Counted from the first letter of the stretch, positions 10,730 through 19,900 are shown. The stretch: 20,000 nucleotides of DNA from an uncultured virus (IMG/VR IMGVR_UViG_3300021425_000028) (IMGVR_UViG_3300021425_000028), one strand, 5' to 3'. Translations and numbers: made by a program. Notes: a model not told the origin generated them from the letters alone.

Positions 10730-13700
10730 ATGAATCAAGACCAAGACAATAAAGCGCTAGATAACCTTTACAAGGATGCCCAGTCAAAAGGCTATAAAAA
10801 GGATGTCTCTGAATTTAAGACTCTTTTAGAGTCTGATGAAAGGGCTTTAGAAGCAGCGTATAAGCTGGCTACTGACAAAGGCTATAAGAAAGATGTTGCC
10901 GAGTTTGAAACCCTTCTAGGGTTAAAAAAAAAAGAATCCGCGCAGTCAGAAGCATCTACAACTCAACAATCAAAAAATCCACAGCAAGCTGGTCAATCAT
11001 CTCAAATGGATGGTCAGCAATCTACGCCATATGGTGTCCAACAACCAAGTCCTCTCGTTGATAAAACGCTTCCAGTTGGTGTGGCTGCTCCTAAAGAAGG
11101 GGGTGAAGTAACTACAGAGTTTCAAGAAAGTATGCGCCCCACAGAAGGTGCTGTAATTGGAGCTAATATTGGAATTGATAAAGCAAAGGATAAGAAATCT
11201 GCAGAGAGTGCGGTAGCTGGTTTTAATGTTGGCATTGAAAAGGCTAATGAAAAGCAGCCTGAAAATACTATGGCCGTATACTCTGATTACAAAAAATTAG
11301 AGCCTCAAATTGAGGAGCTTAATAAGCGTATTGATCAATTCGAATCTTTGGATACTCCAAATAGAAAGGTGATTGATGAGCTTACTATTCAGAGAAACGA
11401 GCTTGCCGATGCTCAAGCAAAAAATGTAGAGAAGCTTATTAATCCAGTAATTGAAAAAACTAAGGATACGTTTTGGACTAAAGATGGAGAGGTAAAGCCA
11501 GAATTTATTGATAAGAATTTTTATGGATTCAATGTTCCGAATCTTGATGCTATTAGAAGCGAAGCTGATAAGCTATTCAATGAAGATGCTCAAGGATTAA
11601 AGAGAAAGTTCATCAAAGACATGCAGGGGTCTATCCAATTTGGATTAGACGTTGAGAAAAACAACCTTGAAGATAGATTTGAAAAAATTCTAAAAGAAAA
11701 TACTGGGAAATCATTACAAGATTTAATCTCAGAAAACAGCCAAAAGCAATTCGATGAAACGTATGGCAAGGATCTAGCCGCCACACTTTCAACTGTTCAA
11801 GGTAAAATTGGGGCTTTAGAATCTGAATACACTGAAATACTTAAGGCTGAGCAAGAAAAAGATCAAGCCATTATAGATCAAATGAGCGCAGCGTATAAGG
11901 AGAAAGCCGAAATATTGACAAGCGCTCCTATTACTACTGTTGAGCAAGAAACTGCTGTAAATCTTGAGTTATCCAAATTATTTGATGATTACAACAAGTC
12001 AATAGACGAAATAATCGAAACATCTGCTGATAGGCAAAATGAATACAATAGTAGGCTGAACAGGGTTGCTCAAGAACAAACGGATCTTTACAATAAAAAA
12101 GCAGCAGAGCTTTCTGCTAAATTTGAGAGGGAATATAATTTATCTCCAGATGTTGTTGCTGAAATGAATAAAGCATCTAAAGCAGCGGCAGAGCAGTTAC
12201 TTCAAGAGGCAAACAAAGCAAAGGAAAAAGTCATATCCTCTATGGATCAGACAAACCAATGGTCAAACAGATTGATGACTAGCACCATGTCTTCTATTGG
12301 AGGTTTAATGGCTGGATGGGCTGTGTCTGGAGGTGGAGATGGTGCGTTTGGTGATAAGGTGGAGCAGTATTGGCAACCATCTGTATCACCGGTTAAGTCA
12401 TTTAAAGACATGACTTTATACTCATTTGAGGAAAGCTCTGGAAACCTTTTAGGTTCTATGATGCCATCAGTAGCTGCTAGTCTTGGTACAGCGGCTTTAA
12501 CAAAGAACGCTAGTATGACAACTAGGATTCTTGCCACTGGTGCAGCTGGATGGGCAACTGAAACTATAGATATAGCTGGAAGACAATACAAAGAAGCACT
12601 TGAGCGAACTGGATCAGAGGCAGAGGCTAAAAATGCAGCTTCAGAGGCTATTGATGCTCAGATTGCAATGTCTTATATGTATTTAGCAGATGGGCTTCCA
12701 TTTATCGGTGCGTATAAGAAAATTGCAAATCCGGTTCTCAGAATTGGGACTGGAGCAACAGTTGAATATGTTACTGAAGGTATTCAAGAATACGGACAAG
12801 GATTAGCAGAGAAGTCAATTTCTGGGTCTAGAGACTATGAAAACTGGTGGTCTGGATATAGAAATAAAGATGGTTGGATGGAAGGTGGAGCTTCTATGGA
12901 GGCGTTTGAAGAGAATATGGTAAATGTGTTGCCAGCTTCATTGACTGGAGTAATAGGGTCTGTAAACGCACAGAGCAAGTCTATTCTCGATACTAATCCA
13001 GACATTGCTATGCAACAACTTGGTGATATGATCATTAAGAAAGGTAAGCCAATGGCAAAACACCAAATCTCATTGATTTATAGCCAGGGGCTAATGGATA
13101 AGCAAACATTCAATTATTTAGGCCAGCAAATTGATAATTATGAGACAGCAAACTCTAAGGAGTACAATGCTATCATGTTTAAAAAGGATCAAGTCAATAA
13201 AGAGGCTGAAAAAGAGGAAGATCCAGTAAAGAAAAAGGTTCTAAATAAAGTAGCTCAGTCATATGATGTTTTAATGGAAGACCTATTAATGGGACGACCT
13301 ATTAACATGAATACTGTAGATGTTGCTGGAAAGGAGTATCTTGAAGTAACTAACAATCCTATCAAGCAAGTAGAGATGAATAAGCTTAAGGATGTAAAAA
13401 TTACCGCTCCGGAAGAAGCTAAAAAGTCTAAAACTACAGTCGAGCAATACGGGGATGAGCAAGAGGTTAAATCAAAACAAGCACCAGAAGAAAAAGGAGT
13501 ATCGGTATCAGATGCTATTACAGGAATCGTTGTGCCGGCTAGTGTAAAAGGAAGGCTTTTGAATGAAGATCAGTCAAAAGAACTACAGAAAGAAATTGAG
13601 TCGAAACAAGTCACTAATTCAACAGAAGTTTTTGATAAGGCCAAAGACGATATTCGTATGAAAGCCTTCAGCTATGATGAGCCGATAGCTAAAAAAGAAG

Positions 13701-14203
13701 TGAACGGAGTAGATGTGCGTATTACTGAAGGGTTAATACGCAATAACGAAAAATCTTATCTTCTTTATGCTGACGGTAAAATAGTTGGAGAATTTGAAAC
13801 TGTAGATGGAGCTAAAAAAGTAGTAGGATTAATTGAAGAGAATCTAGTTCCTTCATTAGAAAGCAATACACTATCTCCTTTCATAGAGAAGTTTAATTTA
13901 ACGGAATCAGAGTCAGCAGAAGGTGTGTTGGTTAATGACCCTAACAGCGATATTCAATTAGCGTTTTCTGAGTCAACAACGCCTAACACAATTAAACTAG
14001 AAAGTATTAGGTCAACAAAGGCAAAACAGGAGTTTGAAGCTCAAGAAGACAATGCATTTAAAGCTAGAAAATGGCCAGTAAAATTAACTTTGATTTCCCC
14101 AAAACAATTAGCAAATTCAAAAAATCCTATTGAAAACAAGTTAAAGCATGATGATATTAAGGATAGGTACAAAAAATTAAAAGCATTTATTAATTGTTTG
14201 TGA
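10730..14203 (+). CDS. Large ejection/cargo (polyvalent-type) protein, N-terminal half; last ~60 aa supplied by the inserted cassette
   Basis: 1157 aa. It has an N-terminal 30-aa duplication, a coiled-coil region and Gly/Ala-rich hydrophobic helices (~aa 520-750). It ends with a partial GNAT-like segment (IQLAFSE...TIKLESIRSTK) followed by an unrelated tail ending INCL. Confidence 0.7.
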   Translation: MNQDQDNKALDNLYKDAQSKGYKKDVSEFKTLLESDERALEAAYKLATDKGYKKDVAEFETLLGLKKKESAQSEASTTQQSKNPQQAGQSSQMDGQQSTPYGVQQPSPLVDKTLPVGVAAPKEGGEVTTEFQESMRPTEGAVIGANIGIDKAKDKKSAESAVAGFNVGIEKANEKQPENTMAVYSDYKKLEPQIEELNKRIDQFESLDTPNRKVIDELTIQRNELADAQAKNVEKLINPVIEKTKDTFWTKDGEVKPEFIDKNFYGFNVPNLDAIRSEADKLFNEDAQGLKRKFIKDMQGSIQFGLDVEKNNLEDRFEKILKENTGKSLQDLISENSQKQFDETYGKDLAATLSTVQGKIGALESEYTEILKAEQEKDQAIIDQMSAAYKEKAEILTSAPITTVEQETAVNLELSKLFDDYNKSIDEIIETSADRQNEYNSRLNRVAQEQTDLYNKKAAELSAKFEREYNLSPDVVAEMNKASKAAAEQLLQEANKAKEKVISSMDQTNQWSNRLMTSTMSSIGGLMAGWAVSGGGDGAFGDKVEQYWQPSVSPVKSFKDMTLYSFEESSGNLLGSMMPSVAASLGTAALTKNASMTTRILATGAAGWATETIDIAGRQYKEALERTGSEAEAKNAASEAIDAQIAMSYMYLADGLPFIGAYKKIANPVLRIGTGATVEYVTEGIQEYGQGLAEKSISGSRDYENWWSGYRNKDGWMEGGASMEAFEENMVNVLPASLTGVIGSVNAQSKSILDTNPDIAMQQLGDMIIKKGKPMAKHQISLIYSQGLMDKQTFNYLGQQIDNYETANSKEYNAIMFKKDQVNKEAEKEEDPVKKKVLNKVAQSYDVLMEDLLMGRPINMNTVDVAGKEYLEVTNNPIKQVEMNKLKDVKITAPEEAKKSKTTVEQYGDEQEVKSKQAPEEKGVSVSDAITGIVVPASVKGRLLNEDQSKELQKEIESKQVTNSTEVFDKAKDDIRMKAFSYDEPIAKKEVNGVDVRITEGLIRNNEKSYLLYADGKIVGEFETVDGAKKVVGLIEENLVPSLESNTLSPFIEKFNLTESESAEGVLVNDPNSDIQLAFSESTTPNTIKLESIRSTKAKQEFEAQEDNAFKARKWPVKLTLISPKQLANSKNPIENKLKHDDIKDRYKKLKAFINCL
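10745..10918 (+). repeat. Two tandem 30-aa (90-bp period) repeats at the cargo protein N-terminus
   Basis: DNKALDNLYKDAQSKGYKKDVSEFKTLL / DERALEAAYKLATDKGYKKDVAEFETLL. Confidence 0.9.
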
Positions 14204-14607
14204 TGGAAAAAGATAGAGATGATGAAATATTTGAAAGGGAACTTTCGCAAAAGAACCATAAGGAATTAATATCCCAGATTAAAAATCTGTCAGAGGCTAT
14301 TTTAAATAGAAAAGAAGCAGGAATTGAAGATGGCTTAAAGATCTATTTACAAAAAATAGATCATGCGTTAAACGCCCTAAATAATAAAAATGAGTCTAGT
14401 CCAAAAATTAATGTAAATTTAGAAGAAGCAGTACGCGCGATTGATAGAATCAAGGCTGAAATAGTGGATAGCAACAATGCTTTTATGCGGTACATGGAGA
14501 GCAGGTTAGTTCCTGATAAAATATCCTTTGTAAGAAATTACAGAGGGGTTGCAGATTCAGTCCAAATAACATACAAATCAATTAAAGAACTAAGAGATGG
14601 CCGATAA
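14203..14607 (+). CDS. Hypothetical protein (134 aa): coiled coil plus a short C-terminal beta-hairpin
   Basis: The ATG at 14203 overlaps the upstream TGA (TGATG) and is preferred over the TTG at 14194. The helical body ends in KISFVRNYRGVADSVQITY. Confidence 0.75.
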   Translation: MEKDRDDEIFERELSQKNHKELISQIKNLSEAILNRKEAGIEDGLKIYLQKIDHALNALNNKNESSPKINVNLEEAVRAIDRIKAEIVDSNNAFMRYMESRLVPDKISFVRNYRGVADSVQITYKSIKELRDGR

Positions 14608-15955
14608 TGTACAGTTAAATTCCCCTACAACTTCTGGAGCTGTTATTGCAACTGATGATATTGCAGGGGTTCAGCATCAACTTGTAAAGCTTGAGTTCGG
14701 AGAAGATGGTTCTGCGACTCAGGTAAGCAACTCAAACCCATTACCGTCTAAAGATTCAGAAGCCATTGCGCTACTCGAAAGTTTAGATGGTAAGATTTCA
14801 GCTCAAAGTTATACTTCTGAGATCGGGGTAAATTCAACTACAACACCACTAGCTAGTGGTGCTACATTTACAGGGGTTGGAGAGCTATCAAATCTACCCA
14901 ATGTTATGGTCATTTGTAAGACCGACAACACAGGAACTCTATTTTTTGATTTTTCACCTGATGGAACAAATTGGGACTCAACATTTCCTACAGCAGGATT
15001 TCAAGTAAAGGCGGGTATAAATGAGTTTCATACAGCAATAAAAGGAGCAAGGTATTTTAGAGTTCGTTTAGTTAATGATACAGGCGCTCAAACATATTTA
15101 AGGCTTTACACTTATTACGGGTCAAACTTTGTACCTAGTAACGCCCCATTAAATCAAATCGCTGGATTAGACCAAGACGCAATATTTACTCGTGGTACAA
15201 TTCCACAAGATGAAATAAGAATAGGTAGAAGAGAAGGTGTTACGGGCTTTACCAAGTTTGCTTATAGAGATGGTTTAACCGCTGCTTCTGGCGAGCAAAC
15301 AGTGTGGACTTCAGCGGAAAATACATTTATACCAATGGTTGTAGCGGACACTTATACAATTACTTATGATGGAACGGGTGGCGGAACAACTGATGGCGCA
15401 GGAACAACAGGAGCTTTGACGCTCGCTATAACTCATGTTAATGCAAATGGTGATCCTGAAACTTTTATACACACGCTTGGTACGGATGGTAGTGATATAA
15501 CAACACAAAGTGGTTTTGGCATCAATCGTTGTGCGGTAGCTAGTAGTGGGGGCGCTGATTACAATAATAGTGATATAACTATAGCCGCAACAATTAGTGG
15601 AAATGTCCAAGCTCATATATCAGCGAATAACAGCACAACCGAGCAAGCTATATTTGTGACTAGCGCTAATCATGATGCGGTTGCTAAGTGGTTATTTATA
15701 AAAATGAATAAATTAACTGGTGGTGGTGAGGTTCGAGCTTTAGTTAAGGGGTACATATATAATAGACAAGTTGCGACACGTTATCTAATTTTTAGAGCAA
15801 TACTTGACACAAGGGGTGAGGCTACTATTAATATAACTGACCCGATAGGATTCAACCTAAGCCCAACAGATGTAATATGGTTTACAGTTGACACAGATAC
15901 GAATAGTAGCGAGATAGACTTAAGGTTTAGCTTAAACGAGTATAGAAGAACATAA
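14597..15955 (+). CDS. Beta-rich putative virion-surface (fibre/decoration-like) protein, 452 aa
   Basis: Thr/Gly-rich. It has an N-terminal module (ADNVQLN...IATDDIAGVQHQLVKLEFGEDGSATQVSNSNPLP), a jelly-roll-like module (NSTTTPLASGATFTG...FDFSPDGTNWD...ARYFRVRLVN) and a second beta domain. The function is inferred from composition and remembered phage motifs. Confidence 0.55.
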   Translation: MADNVQLNSPTTSGAVIATDDIAGVQHQLVKLEFGEDGSATQVSNSNPLPSKDSEAIALLESLDGKISAQSYTSEIGVNSTTTPLASGATFTGVGELSNLPNVMVICKTDNTGTLFFDFSPDGTNWDSTFPTAGFQVKAGINEFHTAIKGARYFRVRLVNDTGAQTYLRLYTYYGSNFVPSNAPLNQIAGLDQDAIFTRGTIPQDEIRIGRREGVTGFTKFAYRDGLTAASGEQTVWTSAENTFIPMVVADTYTITYDGTGGGTTDGAGTTGALTLAITHVNANGDPETFIHTLGTDGSDITTQSGFGINRCAVASSGGADYNNSDITIAATISGNVQAHISANNSTTEQAIFVTSANHDAVAKWLFIKMNKLTGGGEVRALVKGYIYNRQVATRYLIFRAILDTRGEATINITDPIGFNLSPTDVIWFTVDTDTNSSEIDLRFSLNEYRRT

Positions 15956-16146
15956 TGCTACTTGCTTTAATATCAAATATTGGTACGGCAGCAGGAGTAG
16001 TAGTTCCTTTAACTGGAGCAAGTGGAGCTAGCAAGAGAATAAAAGAAGAACAAGATCGAATTGATGAAATTAGAGCTGCAAGAGAAGATGAGCAATACGT
16101 TTTACTCACAATAGCTGAAATAATGGTAAAATATTACACGAACTAA
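15955..16146 (+). CDS. Small hypothetical protein (63 aa)
   Basis: TAATG coupling upstream, and its stop lies 1 nt before the next ATG. It has a hydrophobic N-terminus, a GASGAS linker and a charged helix ending REDEQYVLLTIAEIM. Confidence 0.7.
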   Translation: MLLALISNIGTAAGVVVPLTGASGASKRIKEEQDRIDEIRAAREDEQYVLLTIAEIMVKYYTN

Positions 16147-16147
16147 G

Positions 16148-19100
16148 ATGGCAAAATGTTTAGAACTACTTAGTGGAAGAGAAGATCTTTTAGCCTTATA
16201 TAAGGATATAGACTCAAATGACAAAGAGGCAATGCTAGATATTGCGCAAAATTCATTTAAGGAACTGCATGATGAATTAGAAGAATTAAAGTCTAAAACA
16301 ATACCAGGCCATAAGAAGTCGAAATTCATTGCTCCAAAAATTGATGATGAAATTATTGCTGCTCCAAAACCTAAGAAAGGAGAGGGCAAAGCAAAAGAGG
16401 CGCTTCAACAAATAGTTGATATTGCTGATGAGAATGGAGTGGCTATAGAGTTAGATGTTGTGCCAGAAAATACAAGTACTTCTAAAGATCGTTTGGTGTC
16501 TCTTTATGAAGGTTTTGGATTTGTGATGGATAAAGATTCAGATACTAGAATGGTTAGAAAACCAAAGCAAAAAGAATCGTTTAAGCCATTAACAAAAGAG
16601 GAGATAAGGGAAGCAGAAGAAGTAAAGAAGTCGAAAAAGACATTATTTAATCGCGCATACTCTGGACAGACCGATGAGGAAATAAAAAAAGCAATAGCTA
16701 GACATGGGCTTACTAGAGAAGTGGAGAGTGAGGCCATCGCAACAGATATAGCGAATCAGATAATCGCAGAAGTTGGGCTAGAAAATGCATTCGAAGCTGT
16801 AAACAATAGGCAAATAGGTGGCGCTCCAGCTGCACTAATAGCTGGACGAATGGTAGACTTTGTTAAGTCCAAAATGGAAGGTGATATTTCTCAGCAAGAA
16901 GCCGATGAATTAATGATTGCTCAAGCCAATGTGCTAAATGTATTTGACTCCCTTGCTAAAGAAAGCGGCCGATTAATCAAGGCGTTACAATGGGTCTATG
17001 AAAAATCAGACTTCACGTTTGATTATGAATACCAAGTAGAGTTATTCAAGCGAGTAAATGGAGGTGAAATCAGCTTGGAGCAAGAAGCTCAAATCAAAAA
17101 GATTACAGACGAATTATCGGATCTTAAAAAGAAATTAGAAGAGGTTGAGGAAAAGCATAAAAAAGAACTAGAGCAGCAGATCATCGATGGAATAAAAGAT
17201 CATATTCAAAAATCGGCCAAGAAGAAAGCGCCTCAAAAACTTACGGGTAAAAAACGAGTGGCTAAAGGATTGGAAGACTTATTAAAAGCTACGGGTAGCA
17301 TAAGTATGGCTGTTGGCGAGGTTAGACCGGAAATTACCAAGGCATTAACGGACATTGGTATTGGTTTGATTGAAGAAGGGGTGGCCACAACTGAAAACGT
17401 CATTAAGAAGTTAGCTGACTACCTAAAAAAGAATAATGTCAAAAATGTTAAGCTAAACGATTACAAAGAATCGATTCAAACATCAATTGACGAGTATGCT
17501 TCTAAGGAAACAACCGGTGGGAAGATGAAAATTCCACATGCAATGATTCGTGAACTTGTTGAGGCAGGATATGATACCATGGATTCATTGGTTGCAGCAG
17601 TTAAAGATGTGGTGCTTGCTGAGTACCCAGAGGTGACAGATCGCGAGATAATGGATGCTATTTCTGGATATGGAAGAACGATCAACCAGAGTAAAGATCA
17701 ACTAGATAAAGAAATTTATCGAATGAAGCGAGTCATGAGACTTACTTCAGCTTTAGAAGATGTTCGAAAGAAGATTAGACCAAAGAAATCAGGACTACAG
17801 AGAGATAAGCTTACTTCTGAGGAGAGAGCTTTGTCAAGAGAGTTGCGTGAATTAATGAAAGATCTTCCTATTGATCAAGAAACTTTAGATAATCAGTTGA
17901 AAACTTCATTAGATCGATCAAAGTCAATACTTCAAAATCAAATTGAGGATTTACAAAATGAGATTGATGCCAAAGAAAGAACTGAAAAGAAAGCAAGAAC
18001 TGCTGTTACTGATGCTGAATTAGAGCAGCTTAAAGAGGAAAGGGATGCAATCAAGAAAATACACGATAGTATTTTTAGAACTGATCAGGTTATTCAAGAA
18101 GAGAAGTTAGGCGCTGCCATCAAAGCAGCAGAAAGAACAAATGCAGAACTAGAACGCAAGATTAGGGATAAAGACCTTGAGCGTAAGAAGACTAAAGGAG
18201 CTGTAGAAACAGTAGCATTAAAATCTCTTAGAGATCAAAAGAAAAAGCTTCAAGACACTATTAAGCAACTACGCGATGAAAACGGTATCACTGAGCAGGA
18301 AAGAATAAACCAAGCTAGAGATCGGGCTAAGAAACGAATTGCTGACATTAATCGAAAGATTAAGGAAAAAGATTTTGCTCCAGCACCAAAGAAAAAAATC
18401 ATTTCTGATGCTGAATTAGATAAGATTAGAGCTGAAATTCTTACTAGAAAGCATGAGCTTGATAAACACCGTTATTTGGCTGAATTGGCAAACCAAAACA
18501 AAGTTGAGAAAACTGGCAGGCTTTTAAGAGGTCTTTGGGATATTTCAAGGATTTTAAAAGCAACTGGGGAGGCTTCGTGGATTGGCATTCAAAACGGAAT
18601 ATATACTGTTGTTTATGGATTAAGAAAGCCAAGTGTTTTAAAAGAGGCTGGAAAGAATTTATGGGATGCGTTTGCTAGTAAATCTAAAGGGAAGCAGCTT
18701 ACAAAAATTATTCAATCAAGTCCTCAGTATCCATTAATGAAAGATTCTAAGTTATCCATAACTGAGGAGAATGCTAAATTAAGCGCTCAAGAAGAACAAT
18801 TTATAGGTACGTTATTCGATGAGGCATGGAATCTTGTTGGATTCCCATTGCGGGTTTTAGATTTTGCTCCAATTAAAGGAAAGACAATATATGAAAGTTG
18901 GAAAGATGCAAATTTTCCAGCCGCGTTAGAAAGGGCAAATATTGCATACTCCAATACTTTAAAGGTTGCTAGATTTCAAGACGCTGTTGCTATGCTAGAA
19001 AAGCAAGGTATTTCATATGCCGATGATCCAAAAGCTTATAAAAATGCAGCAGATGTAGTAAATACATTTTCAGGTAGATCGTCTCTTGGAAGACTAGATC

Positions 19101-19900
19101 CGATGGCCGACTCATTAACGTTTATGTTTTTCTCGCCTAGATTATGGGCTTCAACTTTGAAGCAAGCTAGTCCAGCAGCAATGTATTGGGTAGGATACAG
19201 TTTAAAAGATCAGAGTGGAGGTAAATTTAAGCCGTCTGTGGCTCAGAAAATGGCCATAATTGATTTTATGACATCATTCTCTTTGACGATGAGCGCAGTG
19301 CTAATGGCTGCGGCTTACTATAACAATGATGATGATGATGAGACAGGAGTAAACTTTGACCCTACTTCAACCGATTTCATGCAAATCAAAATTGGAAATA
19401 CGAGAGTTGACCCATGGGCTGGTAAGCGACCTTTAATTGTCCTTCAGGCCAGGCTTTTAACACAAGCTTCAGCGTATGCCTTTGGGAAGAAAATAGAAGC
19501 GGAAGAGTACTGGCAAACTAGACCCCCTGGAGAGTTACTTCTAAATTATGCTAGAAACAAATTAGCCCCATCAGCATCTTTAGTTGCAAATTATATGTTA
19601 TCAAGTCAAAAAGAGGAAGATGGAGAAATGATTCTCGTTGATTCATGGGGAAATCCATTAACTGGAAAAGACGCGAGTTTTTATCAGAATGTAATTCCTA
19701 TTTACGCAGAAACATTGATAGAGCTATATAAAGAGCAGCCAGTAGTAATGGCTACATTTTTAACTTCTGCAGCATTCTTTGGAATAGGTACAAATACTTA
19801 TAATAGAGAGGAAAAGAAAAAGAAGAAAGGGAAAAATACAAGTGAAGTTGATATACCTCAATTGGATATTCCGGATTTAGATATACCAGACCTTGATTAA
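16148..19900 (+). CDS. Large ejection/cargo (polyvalent-type) protein, C-terminal half; first ~76 aa supplied by the inserted cassette
   Basis: 1250 aa. Residues ~77-140 form the C-terminal part of a GNAT-like fold, followed by long coiled-coil repeats. The C-terminal domain has FDPTSTDFMQIKIGNTRVDPWAG...RNKLAP and a hydrophobic end, a pattern I recall from large phage internal virion proteins. Confidence 0.7.
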   Translation: MAKCLELLSGREDLLALYKDIDSNDKEAMLDIAQNSFKELHDELEELKSKTIPGHKKSKFIAPKIDDEIIAAPKPKKGEGKAKEALQQIVDIADENGVAIELDVVPENTSTSKDRLVSLYEGFGFVMDKDSDTRMVRKPKQKESFKPLTKEEIREAEEVKKSKKTLFNRAYSGQTDEEIKKAIARHGLTREVESEAIATDIANQIIAEVGLENAFEAVNNRQIGGAPAALIAGRMVDFVKSKMEGDISQQEADELMIAQANVLNVFDSLAKESGRLIKALQWVYEKSDFTFDYEYQVELFKRVNGGEISLEQEAQIKKITDELSDLKKKLEEVEEKHKKELEQQIIDGIKDHIQKSAKKKAPQKLTGKKRVAKGLEDLLKATGSISMAVGEVRPEITKALTDIGIGLIEEGVATTENVIKKLADYLKKNNVKNVKLNDYKESIQTSIDEYASKETTGGKMKIPHAMIRELVEAGYDTMDSLVAAVKDVVLAEYPEVTDREIMDAISGYGRTINQSKDQLDKEIYRMKRVMRLTSALEDVRKKIRPKKSGLQRDKLTSEERALSRELRELMKDLPIDQETLDNQLKTSLDRSKSILQNQIEDLQNEIDAKERTEKKARTAVTDAELEQLKEERDAIKKIHDSIFRTDQVIQEEKLGAAIKAAERTNAELERKIRDKDLERKKTKGAVETVALKSLRDQKKKLQDTIKQLRDENGITEQERINQARDRAKKRIADINRKIKEKDFAPAPKKKIISDAELDKIRAEILTRKHELDKHRYLAELANQNKVEKTGRLLRGLWDISRILKATGEASWIGIQNGIYTVVYGLRKPSVLKEAGKNLWDAFASKSKGKQLTKIIQSSPQYPLMKDSKLSITEENAKLSAQEEQFIGTLFDEAWNLVGFPLRVLDFAPIKGKTIYESWKDANFPAALERANIAYSNTLKVARFQDAVAMLEKQGISYADDPKAYKNAADVVNTFSGRSSLGRLDPMADSLTFMFFSPRLWASTLKQASPAAMYWVGYSLKDQSGGKFKPSVAQKMAIIDFMTSFSLTMSAVLMAAAYYNNDDDDETGVNFDPTSTDFMQIKIGNTRVDPWAGKRPLIVLQARLLTQASAYAFGKKIEAEEYWQTRPPGELLLNYARNKLAPSASLVANYMLSSQKEEDGEMILVDSWGNPLTGKDASFYQNVIPIYAETLIELYKEQPVVMATFLTSAAFFGIGTNTYNREEKKKKKGKNTSEVDIPQLDIPDLDIPDLD
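19850..19897 (+). repeat. C-terminal pentapeptide repeat DIPQL-DIPDL-DIPDL-D
   Basis: 15-bp period with synonymous divergence: gatatacctcaattg / gatattccggattta / gatataccagacctt. Confidence 0.85.

Follow-up and report, generated by a model that had tools for sequence, protein, structure and literature searches.

A giant phage protein encoded in two pieces around a conserved seam module, with the break inside a mini-GNAT domain

The window described here, by which we mean the whole stretch of 20,000 nucleotides analysed from an uncultured virus (IMG/VR IMGVR_UViG_3300021425_000028), is a phage structural region, and it contains a run of open reading frames (ORFs) on the plus strand in the order P0001, P0003, P0004, P0005 and P0002. 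P0001 (10730..14203, 1157 aa) and P0002 (16148..19900, 1250 aa), in the following half A and half B, are the two parts of a giant, polyvalent-like protein of the ejection type, which judging from its gene context is presumably located in the virion. Between them lie a gene of the P0003 family (an ORF from 14194 to 14607 with its ATG at 14203, 134 aa from that ATG), the gene of the fibre-like virion protein P0004 (14597..15955, 452 aa) and P0005 (15955..16146, 63 aa). Half A ends with an extension of about 60 residues, the Cys-tail (14015..14200), which closes with ...RYKKLKAFINCL and has its cysteine codon at 14195-14197. Half B begins with an extension of about 63 residues, the Cys-head (16148..16336), which starts with MAKCLELL and has its cysteine codon at 16157-16159. 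The protein was probably once continuous, and its break in the window passes through a small GNAT domain, termed mini-GNAT here, while the tail, the head and the genes they enclose form a conserved unit that we call the seam module.

The initial annotation of this DNA had proposed that a three-gene cassette split a giant ejection protein in frame through the middle of a GNAT-like domain. The coordinates, the lengths and the common frame of the two ORFs are correct (both starts are 2 mod 3), the translations contain the peptide strings that had been quoted, and removal of 14021-16375 indeed takes out 2355 nt and leaves 1097 + 1174 = 2271 codons. The three intervening genes are tightly coupled, with TGATG at 14201-14205, TAATG at 15953-15957 and TAAGATG at 16144-16150. 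The AT-rich left end is real but modest, with a G+C content of 0.29-0.30 in 300-nt windows across 14000-14449 against 0.33-0.43 around it. No special meaning is attached to the shared frame, as the halves are out of frame at the homologous loci L082 and L042. Both junctions are bridged by a 6,273-nt Logan contig from a seawater-metagenome run, which covers 13800-16600 with 0 differences; as this run may be the window's own source, the contig speaks against a misassembly and is not an independent sample. A promoter and terminator scan of 13700-16700 gave nothing above the shuffled expectation, and when 50,697 phage records were searched for near-identical DNA, none matched the window.

Relatives were collected from viral contigs with a profile of P0002 and four distant homologues, which resulted in 323 confirmed matches and 80 loci that were kept. 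The common feature is a conserved C-terminal module of about 1,070 aa (C-module; 16610..19825 on the plus strand of the window), which is found in 80 viral contigs and is characterized by hydrophobic segments and a ...YYNNDDDD...DP.S.DF... motif. In the closest relatives, the ORF is single, 1,600-4,435 aa long, and ends with the region equivalent to P0002 residues ~155-1225. Two single-piece giants also provide a link to half A: the start of L016 (2311 aa) matches P0001 residues 6-137 (32%, pairwise E = 2e-12), the start of L061 (2504 aa) matches P0001 residues 7-90 with 48% identity, and the ends of both match P0002 residues 118/160-1218. As L016 and L061 thus begin like P0001 and end like P0002, P0001 and P0002 correspond to one giant protein, and the two ORFs are, as had been supposed, two parts of a gene that is single in relatives. 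The joined length of 2271 aa is within the size range of the single-piece relatives. The middles of these giant proteins are hypervariable and cannot be aligned between relatives. A search of viral contigs with P0001 found no relative, and a word-index search of 5.8 billion proteins with P0002 residues 1-400 gave a single distant protein of 2074 aa.

Two further observations concern the N-terminal part of half A. P0001 residues 6-65 (10745-10925) contain a motif that is repeated twice, ..Y/LK.A..KGYKKD..EF.TLL.., followed by G[LI]KKK; it recurs at the starts of L016 and L061 and, by eye, in the split-type upstream halves of L042 and L089, and this end of the giant protein may serve in packaging or anchoring. 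P0001 residues 150-241 (11177-11452) weakly resemble the coiled coil of influenza haemagglutinin HA2, with a Pfam E of 0.004 (16.1 bits vs 31.8) and a phmmer E of about 1e-3 against the PDB, a likeness that probably reflects coiled-coil composition only.

The domain at the break can be recognized from half B. P0002 residues 77-146 (16376..16585, plus strand) constitute the C-terminal part of a mini-GNAT, with the KGEGKA loop, a helix, the IELDVVP strand, the LVSLYEGFGF helix and a final strand. A family profile built from 36 intact domains (131 positions) aligns with its positions 50-127 to P0002 residues 68-146 and scores 87.4 bits (E = 2e-25 in a database of 5,698 ORFs), so that the GNAT reading of the second ORF is borne out in the form of the C-terminal ~60% of the domain. 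The fragment stays below the threshold of Pfam Acetyltransf_1 (12.6-13.6 bits vs 20.7), with residues 77-125 aligned to profile positions 72-116 of 116 at E = 0.09-0.17. The Pfam GNAT threshold is also not reached by the domain of L024 (17.9-18.3 bits), and within the family, Acetyltransf_1 recognises 18 of the 37 members at E<=0.01, the best with 2.3e-8.

L024 (2243 aa) is the reference for the uninterrupted domain, with the sequence ...NTNVILKSEGDNIKIESIQTPRNQRGQGSARNAV...LELNVVP...LVDFYESVGFV..., and it is 40% identical to P0002 residues 68-142 (pairwise E = 4e-17). When its 154-aa domain was compared by phmmer with 1.84 billion representative proteins, 507 proteins were found at E<=1e-3, the best of them mostly interior to proteins of 2,000-5,800 aa, and the GNAT-like domain is thus uninterrupted not only in L024 but also in hundreds of further giant proteins. 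P0002 appears in the same search with residues 65-144 only, from query position 42 onward (E = 1.3e-7). The AlphaFold2 (AF2) model of the L024 domain, calculated with a 37-row alignment, has a predicted local distance difference test score (pLDDT) of 91.4 and consists of a helix, three strands, a helix, a strand, a helix and a strand. Foldseek assigned it 61 PDB matches at E<=1e-3, and all among the matches listed are GNATs. This evidence for the GNAT fold comes from the intact homologue L024.

The tightest fold match to the L024 domain is the anti-CRISPR acetyltransferase AcrVA5 (PDB 6iuf), with a template modelling score of 0.82-0.83 on the AcrVA5 length, a root-mean-square deviation of 2.2 Å and 23% identity over 95-97 columns, and both represent a minimal GNAT fold. 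AcrVA5 also aligns weakly, by direct sequence comparison, with P0002 residues 75-137 (E = 0.26). It is a free protein of ~96 aa, whereas the domain of the window is embedded in a giant virion protein and cut in two; an anti-defence role of the mini-GNAT is a guess. GNATs bind their cofactor with a loop of the motif R/Q-x-x-G-x-G/A. The window has K-G-E-G-K-A at this place and the family consensus is R-G-Q-G-S-A, which means that a lysine takes the place of the arginine or glutamine. The domain part of P0002 is as well conserved as the intact relatives (1.1 bits per position vs 1.4 in L024), which speaks either for a function that has been kept or for an event that is recent.

The mini-GNAT is broken in the turn that leads from its third strand to the acetyl-CoA-binding loop. 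In the L024 model, the third strand NIKIESIQ immediately precedes the RGQGSA loop (KGEGKA in P0002), and the counterpart of this strand is found at the end of half A in P0001 residues 1084-1095, TPNTIKLESIRS (13979..14014, plus strand), which correspond to profile positions 43-54 and to the model strand E41-48. The ungapped score of this 12-mer is 13.1 bits, which was reached by 0 of 204,855 null 12-mers drawn from giant ORFs lacking the domain (null maximum 12.0). It is also the best N-half match among all 131 window frames, its region is aligned by hhalign with E = 0.003 over 9 columns, and it stops 0-3 residues ahead of the point at which the tail homology starts (residue 1096-1102). The whole domain is thus not on one polypeptide, as positions 43-54 are on P0001 and positions 50-127 on P0002.

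The right boundary is less sharp than initially annotated, since the homology to other heads runs out near residue 63 of P0002 and the alignment to the domain profile sets in at residue 65-68 instead of residue 77. The origin of the residues in between, P0002 64-76 (KIDDEIIAAPKPK, 16337..16375, plus strand), is ambiguous. In the HMMER alignment, residues 68-76 are placed on profile positions 50-58, and residues 65-76 (IDDEIIAAPKPK), set in register on positions 47-58, reach 3.3 bits, a score that 0.78% of the null equals or exceeds. From the sequence, residues 64-76 may represent a degenerate second copy of the strand that ends half A, and thereby a short junction duplication. It was also considered that IKLESI is part of the tail module, as the tails of relatives start with ...ITKLE..., and this was rejected, because MAFFT pairs AKQEFEAQ with AITKLETE and places IKLESIRS upstream. 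A separate unit of four strands and a helix is found slightly further upstream in P0001 residues ~985-1037 (13682-13840); no other part of the C-terminal region of P0001 was modelled with confidence (block pLDDT of this unit 69-81). P0001 residues 1035-1074 were tried as a C-terminal domain part in the form of a degenerate tandem copy, but the hhalign E of 0.03-0.07 was too weak.

A rule for cysteines emerged when the C-module ORF and its upstream neighbour were surveyed at all loci. At the 16 split loci, which comprise at least 5 different tail/head sequence types, half A always contains exactly one cysteine, within its last two residues (16/16), and half B contains exactly one at position 3-6 (15/16), with L001 having a second; the cysteine of half B in L059 is at position 11 from a TTG start and at position 5 from an ATG. 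In the window, the sole cysteine of A is Cys1156 of 1157 (...FINCL) and the sole cysteine of B is Cys4 of 1250 (MAKCL...). The other module-bearing ORFs (n = 67) are almost devoid of cysteine, with 5 in 117,875 residues, compared with 0.51% in other phage ORFs of these loci. When only upstream halves of the window type are regarded (n = 10, including the window), each has one cysteine, 2-6 residues from its end. The protein of L088 (L088:3-10013) even comes in four pieces, the tail-bearing A followed by 712, 440 and 1134 aa (stop-to-stop frames), with a cysteine pair at each of the three seams and no other cysteine.

Other split types differ in what lies between the halves. In one of them, a ferritin-like gene is the sole gene at this place, right at a cysteine-tipped seam (L001:6808-7284, L002:7630-8106, L003:1149-1625, L010:8304-8795), with Pfam Ferritin E of 4.7e-14 and 3.1e-12, above threshold, and 166-aa genes are also found in L013 and L014. 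In L046, L056, L059, L065 and L077, the halves lie close together, with a distance of 1-4 nt in four of the loci and, from the called start, of 63 nt in L059; A ends there with ...[FI][IL][ND]S[IL]xxC and B starts with M..(Y/F/W)CL. The succession of a Cys codon, a stop and a Cys codon a few codons later at these close-set seams recalls, as a sequence pattern, the take-off and landing pair of a ribosomal bypass. A bypass between the Cys codons of the window is excluded by the 1,962-nt gap containing three ORFs.

The tail and the head of the window are not peculiar to this phage. The Cys-tail matches the C-termini of the upstream halves of L042 (45%, from residue 1096) and L082 (42%, from residue 1102), and homologues are also found in L037, L085, L086, L087, L089, L091 and L088; in the remaining 76 of the contigs scanned, which include single-piece giants as well as split ones of other types, there was no match at E<=1. 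The head profile scores 72.5 bits in the window, 127-140 in L037, L082 and L042, and 53 in L088. A search within single-piece giants for a stretch corresponding to the tail or the head was negative at E<=1. Only four of 83 loci are matched by the profiles of the tail, of P0003 and of the head, namely the window, L042 (identical to L083), L037 and L082, and a metagenome scan provided 8 loci, one of which (L084) is the L082 contig, with P0003 in 8/8 and the tail directly upstream in 7/8. The seam arrangement hence recurs in at least nine other phage contigs, between halves of the same giant protein and around variable fibre genes. The gene of P0003 is preceded by a tail-bearing ORF in 10 of the 11 contigs scored; in the remaining one, L090 (1,476 nt), the upstream ORF has no tail match at E<=0.01. 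A head-bearing half B follows downstream in the five contigs whose locus reaches that far (the window, L042, L037, L082 and L088). The two extensions had first been taken for incidental donors of a stop and a start, which is not tenable, as each is a conserved terminus with a cysteine at its tip and both are native in all split relatives.

The enclosed genes combine constant and variable parts. P0003 overlaps the stop of A in the TGATG and is the first gene after the Cys-tail wherever the tail occurs. Its homologues, which have 25-33% identity in L042, L037 and L082, are also present in the 8 loci of the metagenome scan; it belongs to no Pfam or PHROG family, and an Atlas search gave nothing above noise. 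The N-terminal ~62 aa of P0004 are a conserved anchor that is 57% identical to the N-terminus of the 255-aa gene at the same position in L042. The remainder is a mosaic, in which residues 87-189 match a stretch of Sphingomonas phage Scott that carries the annotation 'putative tail fiber protein' and residues 301-445 are 30% identical to another gene of L082; P0004 has no PDB sequence match. P0005 ends with the motif ...EDEQYVLLTIAEIMVKYYTN, which is similar to the C-terminus of the gene that immediately precedes the head in L042, L082 and L088 and to that of the 286-aa gene in L037, but this link is weak, as it was seen by eye (...ED(S)xI(I)AIVEL.L...I) and BLAST found no match. The order in L042 is a 1002-aa tail-bearing ORF, a P0003 homologue, a P0004-like gene, two more genes and a 1271-aa P0002 homologue, and L037 and L082 have this layout as well. 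The number of genes between P0003 and the head was counted as 1-4; listed by size, the content is 452+63 aa in the window and 255+482+74, 136+286+391+310+88 and 163+177+258+286 aa at the other loci. One of the intervening genes in L082 is the podophage fibre protein Gp80 of Pfam (E = 1.3e-25). Ahead of the five ORFs, the PHROGs and Pfam scans of the window's structural region assigned a portal to phrog_6547 (E = 2.2e-35) and a virion protein of 1289 aa to phrog_14478 (E = 1.2e-37), and they identified an S74 chaperone domain in a fibre of 332 aa.

A tree of the C-module with 81 rows places the window in a clade of 28 rows (support 100). The other 27 rows of this clade are without a tail or head of the window type and are mostly single ORFs of ~1,950-4,435 aa; L010, L013 and L014 are split, with other tail and head types. 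L042 and L037 are placed in the other C-module clade, which has 53 rows. As the seam module is common to the window and L042/L037 while their C-modules are in different clades, the module and the bodies have different histories, a pattern that fits recombination having brought in either the module or the bodies. In support of the initial view of the block as foreign, the block with its two extensions is shared by phages with only distantly related giant-protein bodies.

We think, with a probability of roughly 60%, that this is a two-piece giant protein that was interrupted by a seam module brought in by recombination, which cut the mini-GNAT, and that the halves are docked and disulfide-linked. 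The protein concerned would be an internal or ejection-type one, free of cysteine, with a conserved N-terminus, a hypervariable middle and the conserved ~1,070-aa C-module. The seam module, consisting of the ~60-aa tail on A, P0003, the fibre-like P0004, P0005 and the ~63-aa head on B, would have arrived by ordinary phage recombination with a split-type phage and not through a mobility enzyme of its own. It would have landed between the third strand and the acetyl-CoA loop of the AcrVA5-like mini-GNAT, leaving the third strand on A and the remainder of the domain on B. Tail and head would then dock in the particle, and the two chains would be joined by a disulfide between their sole cysteines, Cys1156 in A and Cys4 in B, in both respects as in the cyanopodophage A4 that is described further below. 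The protein would thereby be continuous again save for one swapped bond, possibly with some retained enzyme activity, and the conserved tail, P0003 and head may act as homology arms for the exchange of the enclosed fibre genes.

Several results weigh against this explanation. P0001 alone scores at noise level with the 131-position family profile, its N-terminal 58-position sub-profile did not find P0001 among 5,698 ORFs at E<=10, and none of the 131 window frames yielded domain positions 1-42. When the 50 residues upstream of the strand were compared with positions 6-42, 16% of 3,000 null segments scored equally. The joined sequence reaches 91.6 bits over positions 43-127, which is a gain of only 4.2 bits over the 87.4 bits of P0002 alone. 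The proposed split within a GNAT domain is thus confirmed for the break site and for the adjoining strand in P0001, and not for an N-terminal half in P0001; an AF2 model of P0001 954-1157 without alignment (pLDDT 49.6) was too poor to judge a half-domain. At other seams, two halves of one Pfam domain were seen at 0 of 6 loci examined on both sides, and 15 flank pieces from 9 loci yielded no complementary Pfam half-domains. A pre-insertion allele or a closer relative of this phage was not present in the collections searched, and a BLASTP comparison of A and B with gp27 and gp26 of A4 (Anabaena phage A-4L) gave nothing at E<=1. The closely related L010 (split) and L011 (single ORF) differ by mosaic replacement and not by a clean insertion, and, in general, the loss of a seam by deletion is equally possible.

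The idea of an imported seam module can be taken further, although we regard this extension as rather doubtful. The tail-to-head block might be a portable 'cut-and-restitch' unit, a set of host-range (fibre) genes that moves from phage to phage by recombination along with a matched pair of cysteine-tipped docking peptides and lands anywhere in a giant ejection protein; even an enzyme fold could be a landing site, because docking and one disulfide would restore the chain. The window would then be a case of natural split-enzyme complementation, with a mini-GNAT formed from two polypeptides across a docking insert of ~125 residues, and a possible 10-12-codon duplication would be the insertion scar.

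Among the rival explanations, a one-sided replacement survives best. The split would in this case be ancestral, and what follows the head would have been replaced from a single-piece relative by an illegitimate junction in the GNAT domain and a homologous crossover in the C-module, whereby the N-part of the domain was lost and IKLESI in A is coincidental. Such a history is in line with the N-terminal 42 domain positions being undetectable in A and with the common layout of B, as a head, a ~90-aa spacer and the C-module follow each other in the window (1250 aa), L082 (1254 aa) and L042 (1271 aa), and the comparison of L010 with L011 demonstrates that mosaic exchanges of this kind occur. We nevertheless consider it unlikely, since the 12-mer of A is found 0-3 residues before an independently defined tail start, above all nulls and as the best N-half match in the window frames, and since the N-terminus of A groups best with single-piece giants.

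A selfish gene-splitting cassette appears quite improbable to us. Such a cassette would move autonomously by means of an enzyme that has escaped recognition, would insert into giant genes and would supply the stop and the start, whereby the host gene survives. It would account for the block and both termini being shared by phages with giant-protein bodies in different clades and for the possible flanking duplication of 10-12 codons, and it would be similar in concept to the mobE/gene 60 cassette of phage T4. However, a nuclease, recombinase, reverse transcriptase (RT), intron or intein signal was found neither with Pfam and PHROGs nor with Rfam across 13500-17000, where no intron or other RNA family reached E<=1. 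The initial annotation had rightly noted that no integrase, transposase, homing endonuclease or RT is recognisable, and indeed P0003-P0005 match no Pfam or PHROG family, while an intein is ruled out by the stop codons. Its suggestion of an undescribed cassette type is contradicted by the inner genes, which are virion and fibre genes that differ in number and kind (with Gp80 in L082 and the tail-fibre overlap of P0004 as examples). A mobile element would also be expected at different, unrelated sites, and the P0003 contigs instead show one context, with the tail-bearing half A upstream in 10 of 11 and the head-bearing half downstream in 5 contigs. In addition, the conservation of tail and head as protein termini that obey the cysteine rule points to a function in the virion. 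An assembly artefact or a chance resemblance to GNATs, for which one could invoke that the window is a single metagenomic contig and that its fragment does not reach the Pfam threshold, can practically be dismissed in view of the Logan contig bridging both junctions, the same gene order in at least nine other contigs, the family profile E of 2e-25 and the intact homologue with its confident GNAT fold.

The preferred explanation, a recombination-borne seam module, offers a before-and-after view of giant phage injection proteins that are broken and re-joined. The intact domain in relatives pinpoints the cut, and the conserved single-cysteine tail and head are what would make the cut tolerable. 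If the halves re-associate, the tail/head pair would be a compact natural tag for heterodimerisation and disulfide locking, the split mini-GNAT would be a natural split enzyme, and gene callers and annotators should treat such neighbouring giants as one functional protein.

A comparison with known systems leads first to phage T4, in which the mobE cassette splits an essential gene (gene 60/39) and the parts still form a working protein. The T4 mobE block involves a homing endonuclease and a ribosomal bypass. The window differs from this in that it is without a nuclease and in that each piece is encoded by an ORF of its own, with conserved docking ends and with fibre genes enclosed by the two ORFs.

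The second comparison concerns the polyvalent proteins of phages and conjugative elements, which are giant virion-delivered proteins with variable accessory domains that include GNATs (Iyer et al. 2017, PMC5512222). This was the only paper that surfaced when the open-access literature was searched for a split or a disulfide rule in such giant proteins, and its main text is without the words 'split', 'cysteine' or 'disulfide'. Two GNAT families are called RimI-like there; going by this description, they are set apart from the ~120-aa mini-GNAT of the window, whose fold is nearest to AcrVA5. The domain types recognised in the giants studied here are GNAT and a sub-threshold ParB_N only. The latter is a ParB_N-like stretch soon after the head in half B of L037 (L037:5060-5659; E = 1.3e-4, 22.4 bits vs 26.3), and ParB is known among the domain types of polyvalent proteins.

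A structural precedent is found in the cyanopodophage A4, for which cryo-EM shows that a C-terminal helix of gp27 inserts into gp26 and that the two are connected by a Cys1715-Cys5 disulfide (PNAS 2025, PMC12002296). According to the A-4L record, gp27 and gp26 are consecutive giant pre-ejectosome proteins with one cysteine each; gp27 ends with ...NPCQF, its sole cysteine being three residues from the end, and the sole cysteine of gp26 is at residue 5 (MSKHC...). A search of A and B against PDB sequences at E<=1 found only AcrVA5 and coiled-coil noise, and the structural basis of the cysteine pairing is known from this one pair of A4, which is unrelated in sequence to the window. The window and A4 are alike in that the upstream protein has its sole cysteine at the C-terminus and the downstream protein its sole cysteine near residue 5, both being otherwise free of cysteine, and it is by this analogy that a disulfide is proposed for the window. 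They differ in that the A-4L genes are adjacent, 5 nt apart, whereas the halves of the window are separated by 1,944 nt with three genes, and in that no domain is reported to be cut in A4, whereas the break in the window passes through the mini-GNAT. The window would thus extend the gp27-gp26 case to an unrelated sequence family, in which the docking ends travel with tail-fibre genes and a recognisable domain is cut.

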